Shown: one piece after another, positions 49,150 through 55,860 of the stretch
Position numbering within the stretch: the stretch's first letter is position 1
How the letters are laid out: each line of letters starts with the position of its first letter
Assembly: GCA_038087875.1 (NCBI GenBank)
Contig: CM075989.1
Span: 14,076,001-14,140,000, forward strand
Reading direction: 5' to 3'
Origin: Malacoraja senta
Lineage: Eukaryota
DNA: 64,000 nt
Translations under genes and position numbers: made by a program
Notes under the pieces: model-generated
The model's database searches: none
What the model saw: the letters and a program-made list of their open reading frames with translations, nothing else
Told to the model about the DNA's origin: nothing

Positions 49150-49428
49150 TGTTTAGTGTAGTTTAGATGTACAGCTTGGAAACAGGCCCTTCAGCCCACC
49201 ATGTCCGTGTCGACCCATGATCACCCATACACTAGTTCTATCCTACACACTGGGGATAATTTTTACAGAAACTAATTAACCTACAAACCAGCACTGGACC
49301 ACCTGGAGAAAACTCATGCGGTCGCAGGGAGAATGTCCAAACTCCGTACAGACAGCACCCGTAGTCAGGATTGAACCCAGGTCTCTGGCGCTGTAAAGCA
49401 ACTGCTCTACTGCTGCACCACTGTGCCA
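49150..49428 (-). mobile_element. tRNA-derived SINE (V-SINE/HE1-like)
   Basis: Homologous to the other SINE copies in the window. Confidence 0.85.
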
Positions 49429-51710
49429 CCCTAATGTAAAATCTGAAATAAAAGCAGAAAATGCTATAAATATCACTTGTTTAAAAAAAAAAGATATAAT
49501 TATTCTTGGCTGCTTTAGCTGCTGTAGTGAACATAAATCATGAATGCGTTTGGAGTTAACAAAGATTTTGTATTGTCATTTGTGATTTACAATAAATTGA
49601 ACATCTTATCTATGGACTAAGTTATACATATGAACCTACTGTCATACATAGAGTAAATGTTCTGATTTTCTACCAAAGCTTTAAAGTAATTACAGACTGA
49701 GGACTTTGTACAAATGTGTTCAATTTGTGTTTAATGATGTCACAAAGTTGCATCCACATATAAAATGTAATATATTGTTAGGTCTTGTTAATCTGTTGGA
49801 AATGAGGAAATTATTATCTAACGTTCAGAGTTCAGTTGAGAAATTAGTTTCGTAAATAAAAGTTAATCACCAGTTCCATTTCTTCCATGGGATTCTTGGA
49901 TGTCAAAGAAAGAGAAAACACTTGCATTTATTTTGCACCCTTTATTCTCAGGAGATGCTCAAAAGCACTTAATAGTAATTGAATTTGCTAACTGAAAGGT
50001 AATCTGTACTTTGCCAGAGGAACTATGGTATCCTCTTCATGTACAACACGATCCCACAGCAGGAGTTAGATCAGATGGAAAGATATTGCTGTATATGCTG
50101 GTAATCTGAAATAAAGCAGAACATGTTAGATTTGCTACTCAGGTCTTGCAGCCAGTGTGGAGAGATGAGCAGAGTTAACACTTGATCTTATCAGAATGGG
50201 GTACTAAGATAATGAACCGATAAGATCGGGTTTTGTTTAAGAGACAAAACCTGGACAGAATTGCAAAGTACGAAGCACTTTTCTTGGAAGCATTTATGGC
50301 CATTGGAGAGAATGGACGTGACCTCATTTTGACGTCACATTTGAAAGTGAGTCTGGGAGTTCCACAGTAGCTCACTGGAGAAGCAGCACAATGGGGCTAG
50401 ATCATACTGATAGTTACAAAGGGAACTGCTGGTTTTAATTTATTCCACTGGAGTCATTTCTGGTCAGATTTTGGTGCTTCTGCCACTTTGCTCCATCACC
50501 AAATTCCACATGGGAAATCAGTGAGACCTGGTGTCTACAATAGAAACCCATTTATTTGAACATGGATTCCTGTTCTGAAGATTAGGTGGAAAAAAGGCAT
50601 TATTTTTTTATTTAACAAGAAACATTTTTTTTTCATTTAAAAACTGTTATCTTTATGTACAGGAGACTCGACAGGGACAATTTCATGGCTTTTAAATTAC
50701 TTTTTTCTCAGCCTTACCTGTATTTAATGGTTGTGAGGGAGTGATGAGGTGGGTCAACATATTCCCGGATGTGAAGGGCCAGAACAGTGGCTCTCCTGTA
50801 GTAGGCTGAGGTAAGTGCAGATGGTGGGCAAATCTGAAAATTGGACCTAACTCAGCATAGTCCACGATCTTCCGACTCTGAGATAAGAGGCTGACTCTTC
50901 TGTATCATCCCTCAAAGGACGATTCCACACTGACTAGGACTGATCTAGCTGTATATTTTTTGTGATTGTGGCCATTGGAAACTGTATTGTACAGTTTTAC
51001 TTGTAGAAAAGAGATTGTTGAAGGTGATCAGCAATTCTCTCTCTGCTTTGGTAAGTCATATTATGGTCTTCCTCAAAGCAAGCAAAGTGCCTGGAGCTGT
51101 GATGTCAGATGGAATACAATGCATGATGAACATTTCTGTTGCAACGTTATATTGGATGTATACACAGAGGAATGTGAAGGCCTATTCAAGTGATTCTTAT
51201 CTAAGCCGCTGTTAGCACTTTGTTAGTGAAGCCAACAGTGAAATCTTCACAGACAGTCAAGATGTCTTCTGTGACACTTGTGACACTGTGACAGTGTGGC
51301 AACCAATCAGTCCTAGTCCCATCATTCACTGGGGATGGGCGGCACTCTGATTTTCAACAGCCCCACCCCCACTCAAAAGAAAACAGCAATTCAGGAGGTC
51401 ATGCTTTAAAGTTTGAGATTCTCTAGCTTAAAAGTTTGAAGGTTTACGTTTTTTAAAGGGCATAAAACAAAAGGACATAGGTCCCATGACTCCACATGGA
51501 ACTGGCTGTTCCTGTCTTAGCACCATGTTTTCTAAACCATTAACACTTTAAGTTTATTTTGAATATATATCTGTCCACCAATATCAGAAATAATTGTAGT
51601 ATAATTGTACATTAAACCTCAACTTTGTTTCAACTGATCCCTGTTTATTCAGTGCTACAGTTTTCAGCATTCATTGATGATAACTTCTAAACTTACATAA
51701 AGTTGGATAT

Positions 51711-51868
51711 TGTTGTGTATTTGTTGCTTGGAACGGTCTTTAAATAATACTCGGACACGGGAGTAAACTAACAAGCTTCTTTATTCTAAACGCCACCTTG
51801 AGTCTCTCCTGCGCATGCGTACCATTGCGCAAGACATCAAATATGTTAATTATATTACATACCTAACA
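51711..51868 (-). repeat. 3' LTR (158 bp)
   Basis: Direct repeat of 55301-55458 with 2 mismatches; minus-strand AATAAA near 51780; NRF1-like TGCGCATGCG motif. Confidence 0.97.
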
Positions 51869-51883
51869 CTCCTCCCCCTTTAA
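51869..51883 (-). promoter_or_regulatory. Polypurine tract
   Basis: Minus strand AAAGGGGGAGGAG directly abuts the TG of the 3' LTR. Confidence 0.9.
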
Positions 51884-52189
51884 CTTGGAGGCAGGTAACA
51901 CCATTTCTATTTCATACCCCACACTCCTCCCCCTTTAACTTGGAGGCAGGTAACACCATTTCTATTACATAAACAGTACTCCTCCCCTTTTAACTCAATT
52001 TCACCTTCACGATATATGCTATTTACCTAACATATAATTGATTGATACACTGTTGCAAAATTGTATTATTAAAGTCATCTTACAATGCATCCTCATAACT
52101 GTAATAATCTTATCTAAACCTAGCACATAATTTTCATTCCACCCATCTTCCTTAAACCAAATACATTACCCCTTGCTTTATGTGTTATC

Positions 52190-52728
52190 ATTTTCCGTTC
52201 CCTTATGTGTAAATTGCGCACTCTTTCTAATCGCTCTAGCTCTGCCTGTATCTCGGACTCTTCCTTTTTAAATGTCCTAATCTTAATTTGAAGATTTCTT
52301 CCTGTTCCTGATATTCTGCTAAAGTTAACATTTAATTTTCTGCTTCATATATTCGCTTTGTTTTCCTCTGTTTCTGTTCATTATTTGTAGGTGGCACCTG
52401 ACACATGGCTGCAGGTTTTCGTTTTGCTAGCAGCTTTCTCTGTCGCTCAATTTCCTTGCGCTGCGTATTTATCCGCTCTTGTTGTTTAATAAGATTCTGC
52501 AATGCATAACCATGTGTCCATTGCTCAGTGAAGGAGGCTACATGCCAGACTGTATGTAGTGAAGTGTCCTAGTCGCAATCGGTCCTGCATACTTTTGTCT
52601 CGACCGACAAGCCTCTCTTGTTTAGACATTTCTATTAGCAGCTTTTTACTCATTGTCACACATTTATTTAACCATTCTTTGTATCGTTTAAGTATTTTCT
52701 GTTGTTCATCTATTATTCTTAAGTCACA
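52190..52728 (-). pseudogene. TLK2: Processed fragment of tousled-like kinase 2 (coiled-coil region, no kinase domain)
   Basis: [54 protein letters not shown], then after a frameshift [103 protein letters not shown]. The linker resembles TLK2 rather than TLK1; no introns. Confidence 0.9.
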
Positions 52729-53695
52729 TCTCTGGTTCTTCATCAAGAAGTAGGATCTATATTGTCTTTGCAATACAACAATATAGTTTTCTTGCTTCAT
52801 AAGCAAGGTAGTGAGACTGCACTACAATTGCTGGATATTTCAGTTTGAAGAAGTCTTTCCTATACCCAATCATAGGGAGTACTGACTGAATTTGTACAGT
52901 AGCCCTCTTTTGCTTAATCCACTGCCTAACCACCATACCCTTGTAGGCAGCCTGAATGGCAATGGTTGCATACCTCATTGACTGATATTGCACAAACTGG
53001 GCATGCCCTATTTTGCATGCTTTGTACCATCTCTGGATCGAAATGACTGCTTGTCGCATAGCTCTGTAGCATACCCTTGATCGGTACCCACGGAATGAAG
53101 CTTGCAAAGTGACTATAGCCGCCTTTTGCATCAAGAAATATTTTCTTGAAATGCACATCATTAAGAATGACTTAATATGGCGAGCTGCCTTGATTTTCTC
53201 AACCAATTCTCTGGCTTTGACTCCGCTGTAGAAGGCCTGAATACAAACCACTGCTTTTCTCAAACTATTATAATGTCTCACGTGGGCATCTCTTATCTGG
53301 CAAGCCCTGTATCATTGCTGTACAGCAGTGGCGGACCAGCGTAGTTTCTTGAAATACTGACGCTGTTTATGCATTTGATAATAGGTCTGTATGACCTTGG
53401 CATGCACCGCAATTGCTTTCGAACAACCATTCCTCGGTAGGCAGCCTGAAGCAGCACAACGCTGCTGCATACCTTCATGTAAGTTTTGCGATCAGTTTCC
53501 ATTTGAAGGTGTGCCCTATAATGGGTTTGTACTATTATAGCTGCCAATCTCATTGCCCTGTATGGACGGTATACTCGTTGCATTCTAAATACTGCTTGTA
53601 TTACTGTTGCTGCCTTCTGTTTGTCCCGTATCTCTCTCCGTACCTTCATACCCCTGAAGGCAGCTTGAATAGTTAGGGTTGCCCTCTGGATGGTC
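52729..53695 (-). pseudogene. ASPM: Fragment of the ASPM IQ-repeat array
   Basis: Tandem motifs IQAAFRGMKVRR, IQAVFRMQR, VQTHYRAH, LQAAYRGMVVRK, LQASFRGY, IQRWYKA and IQAAYKGMVVR, with ASPM-type periodicity; frameshifts near 53400 and 52795, and a TGA near 53313. Confidence 0.85.
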
Positions 53696-54252
53696 ATGTC
53701 CCTTTGCATTTGACTTCTGTCCCTTTGCATTTGACTTCTGTGCCTTTGCATTTGACTTCTGTCCAGTACATGTGCCCTGTACTGCTGTTGGTAAGCTCTA
53801 ACAGCATCACACTGGCTTTTGGTGTGACCCGTTCCCGAGCACTTGAAACACCTACTATCTCTGACTTTACACATCGCCGGCTCATGGCTGCCTCCACATC
53901 TCCAGCACTTCTTGGAGTTGTGAATCTTGTCTCTGGATGCCCTTGAGGGATTCCATGCCTCCTTTAGTTCAGGCTCCTTGTCTCTGGATGCCCTTGGAGG
54001 TTTTGGCGAGAATTGAGCCATTAATGCCTCCTCACATTCCTCGTACGTTTTACTCGTGGGCTTTGCTGGCTGCAGCAACGCACGTAAGGTGTGATAACCC
54101 TTGCTTCCTAAGCCTACAATGAACCAATCTCTCTTCTTCTCCTCCGCAGTGATATCATTGAAAATGAACCAAGCCTCCAAGACTTCGGTCCATTTCTCAA
54201 AATTATACCCCGAATCTAACTGGGGCACATTTCTTACAATTAAAGTAGCCAT
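53293..54252 (-). CDS. gag: Gag-IQ-repeat fusion ORF, 319 aa (Mag-like Gag N-terminus, two zinc knuckles, ASPM IQ motifs)
   Basis: FEKWTEVLEAWFIFNDI..KKRDWFIVGLG..Y..LRALLQPAKPTSKTYEE..L..QFSPKP; knuckles CWRCGGSHEPAMC and CFKCSGTGHTKSQC; then four IQ-like motifs in the same frame. Confidence 0.85.
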   Translation of the reverse strand: MATLIVRNVPQLDSGYNFEKWTEVLEAWFIFNDITAEEKKRDWFIVGLGSKGYHTLRALLQPAKPTSKTYEECEEALMAQFSPKPPRASRDKEPELKEAWNPSRASRDKIHNSKKCWRCGGSHEPAMCKVRDSRCFKCSGTGHTKSQCDAVRAYQQQYRAHVLDRSQMQRHRSQMQRDRSQMQRDMTIQRATLTIQAAFRGMKVRREIRDKQKAATVIQAVFRMQRVYRPYRAMRLAAIIVQTHYRAHLQMETDRKTYMKVCSSVVLLQAAYRGMVVRKQLRCMPRSYRPIIKCINSVSISRNYAGPPLLYSNDTGLAR

Positions 54253-54853
54253 GCTACCCTGTTGCTATTCAGGTGCACTATGTTCTGTTCTCTCACTGTG
54301 TTCTCTGCACTGGACTTAATCCTTTTACACACTAAGAAGTTATCCAGCCCACTGACTATTACTAATTCTTATAATAATAGATTTATACTAATAAATCAAC
54401 ATTTCATGTTAATAGCAAACTAGAACATTTAAACCATATACCTGCTATGCACACAGATTTACTTAAATCATTGATACAGTGTCCATACATTAAATTCATA
54501 CAGTCCAGCTTTTACTGTGAGTAATTCACTAGTCCGACCTGACTGTCTCTGGACTCCGATGCCTCAGCGACCTCTCGGGCTGTCCTCACCGTTGCTGTCT
54601 TCAGCGGGCTGTTGCTGGCTTTTGCTGGCTTTTGCTGCTTTGCTGGCTTCACGGCTGGCCTGGCTGTTGCTGGCTTTTGCTGCTTTGCCTGTTGCTGGCT
54701 TCATGGCCTGGCTGTTGCTGGCTTTGTCCCGCTCTTCTCACGGCCGGGCCCGCTCTTCTCGCGGCCTGGGCTTTCTCTGCTTATGGCCGTCTCTCGCGGC
54801 CGAGCTGGCTCTGCTCACGGCCGTCTCTTGTGGCCGGCAGGAGACTCGGCTGT

Positions 54854-55015
54854 CGTCGGTGGCGGTTGCCGGACCTGTCCGTGGGCTGCACGGTACTGGC
54901 CCTCACCCGACGTCGGTGGCGGCTGCTAGGCCTGGCCGTGGGCTGCACGGCCCTGGAACTCACCCGACGTCGGTGGCGGCTACTGGGCCTGGATGTTGGC
55001 TGCACAGCCCTGGAA
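54854..55015. repeat. 57-bp GC-rich tandem repeat (about 3 copies) in the element's 5' leader
   Basis: CGTCGGTGGCGG recurs at 54854, 54911 and 54968. Confidence 0.85.
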
Positions 55016-55285
55016 AGCGTTCCAGGTAAGCTGACACCGCTGTCCTGCTGGTTAGGCTTCTAGCTTCCAGCTGCGCTCTTCGGTGACACTTACTGCCTCG
55101 CTTGTTTTCCGTGCGCTCTTGCTTCCCGTTCCGACCTTTCTTTTCTTTGGCGCCAATTCAAATACCATTTGGCGCCAAATCTTTTTGCTTGGTGCCGTTC
55201 CAATTTGTGTCGCCAAATACCAACTCTTTTAAAACTTTTTTTCTTTTCTCTTGGCAGTACTCGTTCTTCTCTTCTCAGTTCTTTG

Positions 55286-55298
55286 ATCCTCGTCGCCA
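55286..55298 (-). promoter_or_regulatory. Primer binding site, tRNA-Ser(GCT)
   Basis: Minus strand TGGCGACGAGGAT, 2 nt after the 5' LTR; complementary to the recalled 3' end (ATCCTCGTCGCCA) of vertebrate tRNA-Ser(GCT). Confidence 0.85.
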
Positions 55299-55300
55299 AT

Positions 55301-55458
55301 TGTTGTGTATTTGTTGCTTGGAACGGTCTTTAAATAATAATCGGACACGGGAGTAAACTAACAAGCTTCTTTATTCTAAACGCCACCTTGAGTCTCTCCT
55401 GCGCATGCGTACCATTGCGCAAGACATCAAATATGTTAATTATATTACATAACTAACA
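55301..55458 (-). repeat. 5' LTR (158 bp)
   Basis: Direct repeat of 51711-51868; adjacent to the PBS. Confidence 0.97.
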
Positions 55459-55554
55459 GATATGTAATATAATGCTCATCTGGTATCTGAAAGCATTAAG
55501 TGTCTGGGAGATTTTGCCTGAAGATGGGTCCCAACCTGTGGTGGGATGGTGGGT

Positions 55555-55860
55555 GGCCAAGGTGGTGCTGCAGTAGTGTTGCTGCGCCGGAGACCCAGGT
55601 TCGATTCCGACTATGGGTGCTGTCTGTATGGTGTTTGTACGTTCTCCCCGTGACCGCGTGGGTTTTCTCTGAAATCTTCGGTTTTCTCCCACACTCTAAA
55701 GACGAACAGGTATGGAGGTTAATTGGCTTGGTGTATGTGTAAATTATCTCTAGTGTGTGTAGGATAGTGTTAATGTGCGGGGATCGCTGTTCAGTGCAGA
55801 CTTGGTGGGCCAAAGGGCCTGTTTCCACGCTGTATCTCCAAACTAAACTAAAAACTAAAC
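55555..55860 (+). mobile_element. tRNA-derived SINE (V-SINE/HE1-like)
   Basis: ggttcgattcc B box, conserved body and (ctaaa)n tail. Confidence 0.85.

Follow-up and report, generated by a model that had tools for sequence, protein, structure and literature searches.

Acutely transforming gag-onc retroviruses carry Gag fused in frame to host coding sequence, have lost pol and need a helper. The long terminal repeat (LTR) retrotransposon considered here, at positions 51711-55458 on the minus strand of a 64,000-nt stretch of the Malacoraja senta genome (contig CM075989.1, positions 14,076,001 to 14,140,000; hereafter the window), resembles them in carrying pieces of two host genes, ASPM and TLK2, behind gag and in place of pol. 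It differs from them in that gag-onc retroviruses were selected for cell growth in infection, whereas this element belongs to the germ line and its host fragments have no catalytic domain.

LTR-mediated capture of mRNA, including the formation of multi-gene chimeras, is already known. For animals, a capture model with multi-gene chimeras and secondary retroposition has been set out for LTR-mediated retrocopies (Tan et al., 2016, PMC5131818). As those retrocopies are presented there, they share with the present element partial mRNA copies lying between LTR ends, several parental genes per locus and a mostly sense orientation, and they have microsimilarity at the switch points, to which the 3' junction described below may correspond; however, they are single or few copies (zebrafish 7, 5 LTR-made), in contrast to the about 150 or more copies, two subfamilies and maintained gag fusion frame found here. 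Maize Bs1, in the account given by the same paper, is likewise an LTR element that cannot move by itself, contains exon fragments from several host genes and has common switch points in all copies, but it is a plant element with one to five copies per Zea species, as against far more copies in a vertebrate (PMC5131818). The mouse IAP 1-delta-1 element, as summarized in the passages cited, is non-autonomous, encodes an in-frame Gag fusion, needs helper proteins and spreads well, and its fusion protein has been reported to act in cis (PMC6466679, PMC7411935). Its fusion partner, however, is its own pol and it is retrovirus-derived, whereas here the partners are two host genes in a Ty3/Gypsy element, in which a cis effect would be our interpretation. 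Finally, the crocodilian endogenous retroviruses CrocERV29 (KIT-ligand) and CrocERV31 (nectin3) are described as vertebrate LTR elements that captured host mRNA, copied it onward and kept it under purifying selection; each contains a single near-complete gene as its own open reading frame (ORF) in 6-9 copies, in contrast to two fragments fused to gag (PMC4299795).

Against this background, the copy number and the maintained three-part frame of the skate element are unusual. We show that the element belongs to a large family and that its gag, ASPM and TLK2 parts lie in one reading frame that propagating lineages have tended to keep open; both results are new relative to a first-pass annotation of the window, made by a model from the letters alone. 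No published ASPM and TLK2 retrotransposon family was found in the literature searched, which lay outside repeat databases (Repbase/Dfam), subscription journals and supplements. The family is therefore previously undescribed as far as that search extends, and a repeat-database entry for it may exist. It provides an unusually clear, high-copy record of LTR-mediated gene capture in a vertebrate, with parent exons, helper relatives and two diverging subfamilies in one genome. Because the frame survived two captures and later deletions and duplications, two questions become testable from sequence: whether an LTR element that is non-autonomous must still be translated itself, and whether captured host sequence is filler or function. 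With ASPM and TLK2 fragments present in about 150 sense copies, the family might also supply small RNAs that silence the host genes, and the fragments will mislead gene annotation as false paralogs.

Architecture of the element

The interval 51711-55458 is confirmed as a complete non-autonomous Ty3/Gypsy LTR retrotransposon on the minus strand, with the following components.

55459..55463, plus strand: target-site duplication (TSD) GATAT on the 5' LTR side, read directly from the sequence
55301..55458, minus strand: 5' LTR, 158 nt, from self-comparison
55286..55298, minus strand: primer-binding site (PBS) TGGCGACGAGGAT, two bases past the 5' LTR; a pol-bearing relative carries an identical site
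54253..55285, minus strand: leader of about 1 kb with GC-rich tandem repeats (a 57-nt unit three times at 54845-55015, and shorter units)
53995..54252, minus strand: N-terminal 86 codons of gag, probably the N-terminal part of capsid
53785..53994, minus strand: native gag linker and two zinc knuckles, which agree with a pol-bearing relative at 89% of DNA positions as far as the switch point
52729..53784, minus strand: IQ array, by its likeness captured from ASPM (about residues 2576-2930 of ray ASPM)
52181..52728, minus strand: coiled-coil region of TLK2 (about residues 194-376), captured in spliced form and made up of five exons
51882..52193, minus strand: 3' untranslated region (UTR) of the element, with two upstream copies of the polypurine tract (PPT) plus LTR start
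51869..51881, minus strand: PPT AAAGGGGGAGGAG, directly ahead of the 3' LTR
51711..51868, minus strand: 3' LTR, 158 nt
51706..51710, plus strand: TSD GATAT on the 3' LTR side

The LTRs of this copy have TG...CA ends and differ by 2 mismatches over 158 nt, and with the TSD, PBS and PPT they bear out the first-pass claim of a complete LTR retrotransposon. The claim that pol had been replaced also stood: the whole of pol is absent, its place being taken by ASPM IQ repeats (about 1.05 kb) and a TLK2 coiled coil (0.55 kb), and the pol of a Gag-Pol protein of 1389 residues (P0285) has no match in the element interior at E<10. The description of gag as intact has to be corrected. The gag ORF (ATG at 54252) aligns with P0285 over residues 2-86 (67% identity) and 212-273 (58%), and about 100 residues following the first 86 are gone; from Pfam placement and general knowledge, these probably formed the C-terminal part of capsid. 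We dropped the idea that this deletion was inherited from a pol-bearing relative, since the relative keeps capsid to residue 136 and has a deletion of its own, and the "linker" proved to be native gag. A predicted fold of the 86-residue gag head (predicted local distance difference test score 53, four helices) gave no match at Z>=5 and is uninformative; the ESM Atlas returned Gag-like clusters that bear no clade name. The three longest frames of the leader match no Pfam family.

In the window, the PPT and LTR start occur in three tandem 55-nt copies (51850-51995). The same repeat also lies upstream of the 5' LTR in three of nine other copies checked (L071, L074, L075), which suggests either priming at the upstream PPT, with longer LTR variants, or tandem elements.

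We tie the element to Ty3/Gypsy through its gag, LTR and 3' end. P0285 contains protease, reverse transcriptase, RNase H and integrase in Ty3/Gypsy order by domain search, and its best match in the PDB, and thus its closest solved relative, is Ty3 Gag-Pol. The 158-nt LTR and 5-bp TSD agree with Mag-type features, as would the PBS, putatively of tRNA-Ser type. Mosquito Mag elements are described as having short LTRs, a 5-bp TSD and a tRNA-Ser or -Leu PBS (PMC3286476). Two CCHC arrays in the nucleocapsid are reported for the Mag clade, and in the same source for Micropia/Mdg3 (PMC2577118), so that the two CCHC knuckles of the window gag are not exclusive to Mag. Mag-type features fit the element, but they do not by themselves place it in the clade.

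Host genes, pol-bearing relatives and the origin of the cargo

Both host identities proposed at first pass held, the best matches being to ASPM and TLK2 and, in agreement with a cartilaginous-fish host, to shark and ray proteins; both pieces are sense to the element's transcript, as had been stated. The cargo had been placed at 52190-53695, about 1.5 kb. The fragments are there, but their extent is about 53784-52181 (1.6 kb), beginning straight after the gag zinc knuckles.

The TLK2 identification rests on a PDB match (5o0y) and on a protein search whose best matches are shark and skate TLK2 at 89%. The host TLK2 gene lies at C10:14350893-14405109, and a TLK1-like gene was also found on C6180. 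Aligned to this locus, the TLK2 cargo corresponds to five consecutive host coding exons at 91-97% identity, with the four intervening introns (3299, 1703, 1082 and 1293 nt) removed exactly at AG/GT in all four cases. The TLK2 piece therefore came from spliced mRNA, as had been argued. It begins 6 nt inside an exon, so its start is not a splice junction. Of 2805 TLK2 candidates, 64 were scored, and each of these is a piece without introns that falls within the captured interval or extends a few residues past it.

The ASPM piece contains IQ repeats that score above the Pfam cut-off and is collinear with ASPM residues about 2576-2930; because its first 110 residues fall in an internal ASPM repeat, their placement is ambiguous. 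Its top match among the 150 representatives listed is stingray ASPM, about 70% identical over residues 2700-2906. By this resemblance the piece is captured ASPM, the mRNA origin being demonstrated for the TLK2 piece. Host ASPM itself was not found in the assembly with queries for the Pfam ASH domain, C-terminal ray ASPM, a middle IQ piece and a whale-shark fragment; the last two scored 69 of 427 and 52 of 534 candidates, and their listed matches all resemble element copies. An assembly gap is the most likely reason. A 6541-letter contig (record 13 of run X17) matches window positions 53502-53685 only by its last 184 letters, and possibly represents an ASPM transcript from the host gene in a related species.

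A genome-wide search for the pol-encoding partner that the first-pass annotation had postulated recovered pol-bearing relatives at 61-83% identity to P0285 pol, which share LTR, PBS and 3' end with the element. The relative on C4214 resembles it in the LTR (75%), leader and gag start (80%), knuckle region (89%) and 3' UTR (73%, over 52193-51991), with PBS and PPT in common, and an LTR and PBS query also matches 3.6-5 kb upstream of three other pol matches. The relatives are candidate helpers, past or present; the close ones contain stops. The element leaves gag at 53785, the point at which a pol-bearing relative continues into protease. At the other end, the TLK2 piece stops near 52181, directly past the position of the relative's pol stop codon, at ACACA, 5 bases that host TLK2 and the pol-bearing relative have in common as part of a more extended partial match. 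Such similarity, read at this one of the three junctions, would be expected from template switching, the mechanism put forward earlier. In the window copy, the cargo contains no stretch of eight or more A residues and its ends are not duplicated; independent retrocopies could have left either mark. An 8-nt match near both cargo ends was rejected as a TSD because it sits inside a knuckle rather than at a junction.

We consider an origin by LTR-mediated capture very probable. The family would have been born by reverse-transcriptase template switching, in which copying inside the particle of a pol-bearing relative jumped from element RNA to co-packaged ASPM and TLK2 mRNAs and then returned, so that all of the element between the nucleocapsid end and the pol stop was exchanged for host sequence. 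The product retained LTRs, PBS and PPT, and was presumably moved in trans by pol-bearing relatives to the sites that it now occupies.

A multicopy family with two subfamilies

A search of the genome with the whole element gave 881 candidates, of which 36 were scored. Patterns spanning the junctions, at up to 2 mismatches, matched 175 times for ASPM/TLK2 and 156 times for TLK2/element, and reversed-pattern controls matched 0 times. Because the ASPM/TLK2 junction is doubled in some copies, some places are duplicates and diverged copies are missed, we estimate about 150 or more copies. Both ends were examined in 13: six have a 5-bp TSD, all different, one has a 4-bp match, one has none and five were unreadable. 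Nine LTR pairs are 88.5-97.3% alike, and the window copy (2 mismatches in 158) is the youngest measured.

The copies fall into two subfamilies, with median identities to host TLK2 of 94.6% and 90.9%. Zinc-knuckle DNA is kept in 9 of 48 places; the other 39, some of which do not cover the region, are without it, and knuckles are absent from the larger subfamily. Most knuckle-less places have instead an in-frame 21-nt tandem repeat, encoding 7-residue units rich in Q, K, D and G, of very variable length, and the largest gag-to-IQ spacer reaches 970 nt (L058).

Four pairs of places are exact duplicates. Near-alike copies with TLK2 matches ending at residue 315 lie at C18:9.79-9.98 Mb and on contigs C2015, C2349, C2735, C3830, C997, C1965 and C4078; this cluster looks like a single insertion multiplied by segmental or tandem duplication. 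Its copies have a nested long interspersed element (LINE) in the IQ array, as read in L062. Extra cargo in the longer copies L062 and L040 was considered and rejected, a nested LINE and another repeat being found instead.

Fourteen public runs under nine organism labels contain 0.26-0.31 of the sequence words. Two DNA runs cover the element over its full length; their summed depths there mostly exceed those of the flank by a factor of 50 to 1000, which should not be taken for a copy number. The ASPM/TLK2 junction is bridged by contigs of an independent DNA run (X2). The family is real and probably common to several species. The recurrence of the junctions at 150 or more places, together with the bridging contigs, also disposes of a misassembly, which the first-pass annotation had named as a danger to its chimera. 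A contig of run X3 contains flank and only 28 LTR letters, short of a 31-letter bar, and we claim no shared insertion from it. None of the matching public runs is recorded as RNA; two that might be RNA contain pieces, yet they may as well be DNA and have no bearing on expression either way.

The gag-ASPM-TLK2 reading frame

Gag continues without interruption into the IQ array in many copies, that of the window included. The ASPM piece starts in frame with gag, with the 21-nt unit present three times at 53697-53764, and the TLK2 piece is in frame with the ASPM end. Of 33 copies read, 31 agree in phase at the IQ/TLK2 junction, which is open across in 8 loci. The length of the gag-to-IQ spacer (102 to 970 nt) is divisible by three at 23 of 39 places and the IQ-to-TLK2 distance at 17 of 30. 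Since the copies are related and the 21-nt unit keeps the frame by itself, the spacer counts are not independent trials.

We therefore compared changes shared by at least three copies, taken as inherited, with changes private to one copy, which reflect decay after insertion, in 44 places that remained after four exact duplicates had been dropped (gag covered in 41, ASPM in 41, TLK2 in 30). The ratio of nonsynonymous to synonymous changes (N/S) is 178/83 for shared and 505/165 for private changes (odds ratio 0.70, p=0.03). By region, the odds ratio is 0.64 for ASPM (p=0.04), with non-significant values of 0.94 for gag and 0.71 for TLK2. With CpG sites excluded and TLK2 cut at codon 99, N/S becomes 100/56 against 419/133 (odds ratio 0.57, p=0.004); across both counts the ASPM odds ratio is 0.56-0.64 (p 0.016-0.04). 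Stops number 9 shared against 44 private (p=0.08), or 1/157 against 30/582 in the filtered set (p=0.011), and most shared stops are CpG hotspots. Five shared ASPM stops, four of them CGA-to-TGA changes at CpG, occur in 3 to 7 of about 40 copies and none is fixed per subfamily; they were considered as inherited early stops and are read instead as recurrent decay. Up to early TLK2, all three shared indels preserve the frame, and in distal TLK2 1 of 9 does; for private indels of gag and ASPM the figure is 15 of 58.

Thus propagating lineages tended to keep the gag-ASPM-TLK2 frame open, leaving a modest inherited deficit of stops, frameshifts and amino-acid changes. The fusion frame would have encoded the gag N-terminus, the knuckles or 7-residue repeat, the IQ array and the start of TLK2. 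We suggest, as the likeliest reason for its retention, a cis advantage, in which translation of the element's own RNA, or a Gag-headed protein on it, aids RNA stability or packaging; the cargo would then be mainly in-frame filler under weak constraint. This full account, capture plus a cis benefit of the open frame, is the one we favor, with moderate confidence.

Several observations weigh against it. The gag N-terminus taken alone gives no sign of constraint (odds ratios 0.94 and 0.76, both non-significant), and sites separating the subfamilies are mostly amino-acid changes (gag 8N/3S, ASPM 9N/4S, TLK2 2N/1S), as are the changes from host TLK2 present in nearly all copies (9N/2S). The CpG exclusion and the codon-99 cut were both chosen after seeing the data, and the 44 places were chosen, from about 150 or more, by likeness to the window copy. 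Of the 39 spacers, 16 break the frame, and none of the copies examined is open through the whole frame from the gag start, the longest reaching 416 codons. The window copy is young by its LTRs, yet its frame is broken at several places (in ASPM near 53400, 53312 and 52770, and in TLK2 near 52550 and beyond). The larger subfamily is without the zinc knuckles, although a role in packaging would seemingly call for them. Recombination with host mRNA may also have occurred.

Alternatively, the cargo would be a neutral passenger of the same origin and spread, its open frame the luck of an in-frame founder and the statistical signal inflated by hidden relatedness or by later host-mRNA recombination that introduced silent host changes. 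By chance alone a junction would fall in frame one time in three, the 21-nt unit maintains the frame automatically, and the lower divergence of one subfamily from host TLK2 is relevant to recapture from host mRNA; the unconstrained gag and the amino-acid changes between subfamilies point the same way. However, at least five inherited length changes (the capsid deletion, the two junctions, the knuckle loss and a 72-nt duplication) are all in frame, a probability of about 0.004 at one in three each, although they were counted after the fact. Moreover, distal TLK2 serves as an internal control within the same copies. There, 8 of 9 shared indels are frameshifts, and intermediate-frequency changes from the host gene are neutral in proportion (25N/8S, against 56/14 private), whereas proximal TLK2 has 18N/14S against 82/25 private. 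We consider neutrality an unlikely explanation, if one to be taken seriously.

A benefit in cis must also be distinguished from a fusion protein with a job of its own, whose Gag head would join membranes or the particles of a helper. Its IQ array would bind calmodulin and its TLK2 coil would bind partners in the host, so as to steer the particle or to interfere with host ASPM and TLK2 in dividing germ cells. ASPM and TLK2 are both cell-division genes, constraint is clearest in the IQ array and proximal TLK2, and IQ motifs still score above the Pfam cut-off. Captured ORFs are also described as being under purifying selection in crocodilian endogenous retroviruses (PMC4299795). However, constraint is far below that of the host gene, whose coiled-coil and kinase exons are mostly 88-100% identical to skate TLK2, compared with 62-85% for element copies; the founding lineage changed at 9N/2S; no kinase, ASH or CH domain was captured; and the IQ array is interrupted by duplications. 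We regard such a protein as quite improbable. The broader proposal that a three-part protein (capsid head, calmodulin-binding IQ array and TLK2 coil) was selected for use in dividing germ cells of several shark and ray species, an instance of exon shuffling by a selfish element, is in our judgment rather doubtful.

Separate LINE-made retrocopies, or a rearrangement of DNA, that landed in an LTR element of older date and were then multiplied through segmental duplication are extremely unlikely, as is an artefact of assembly. These readings are largely refuted already, because although four pairs are exact duplicates, the C18 and unplaced cluster looks segmentally duplicated and nested LINE insertions are common in the copies, the cargo has neither poly(A) nor duplication at its ends, pol is cleanly replaced rather than interrupted, TSDs differ between copies on different contigs and the junction is bridged in an independent run.

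Two observations lie apart from the family. Inverted copies of a very abundant short repeat, presumably a tRNA-derived short interspersed element, flank the region at window positions 55570-55852 and 49152-49405; they are 80-85% complementary and have extreme read depth. Elsewhere in the genome, a second, remoter Gypsy family (40% identical to P0285; C1:200774099-200777899 and similar loci) includes several copies whose frames run for about 1300-1380 codons with no stop.

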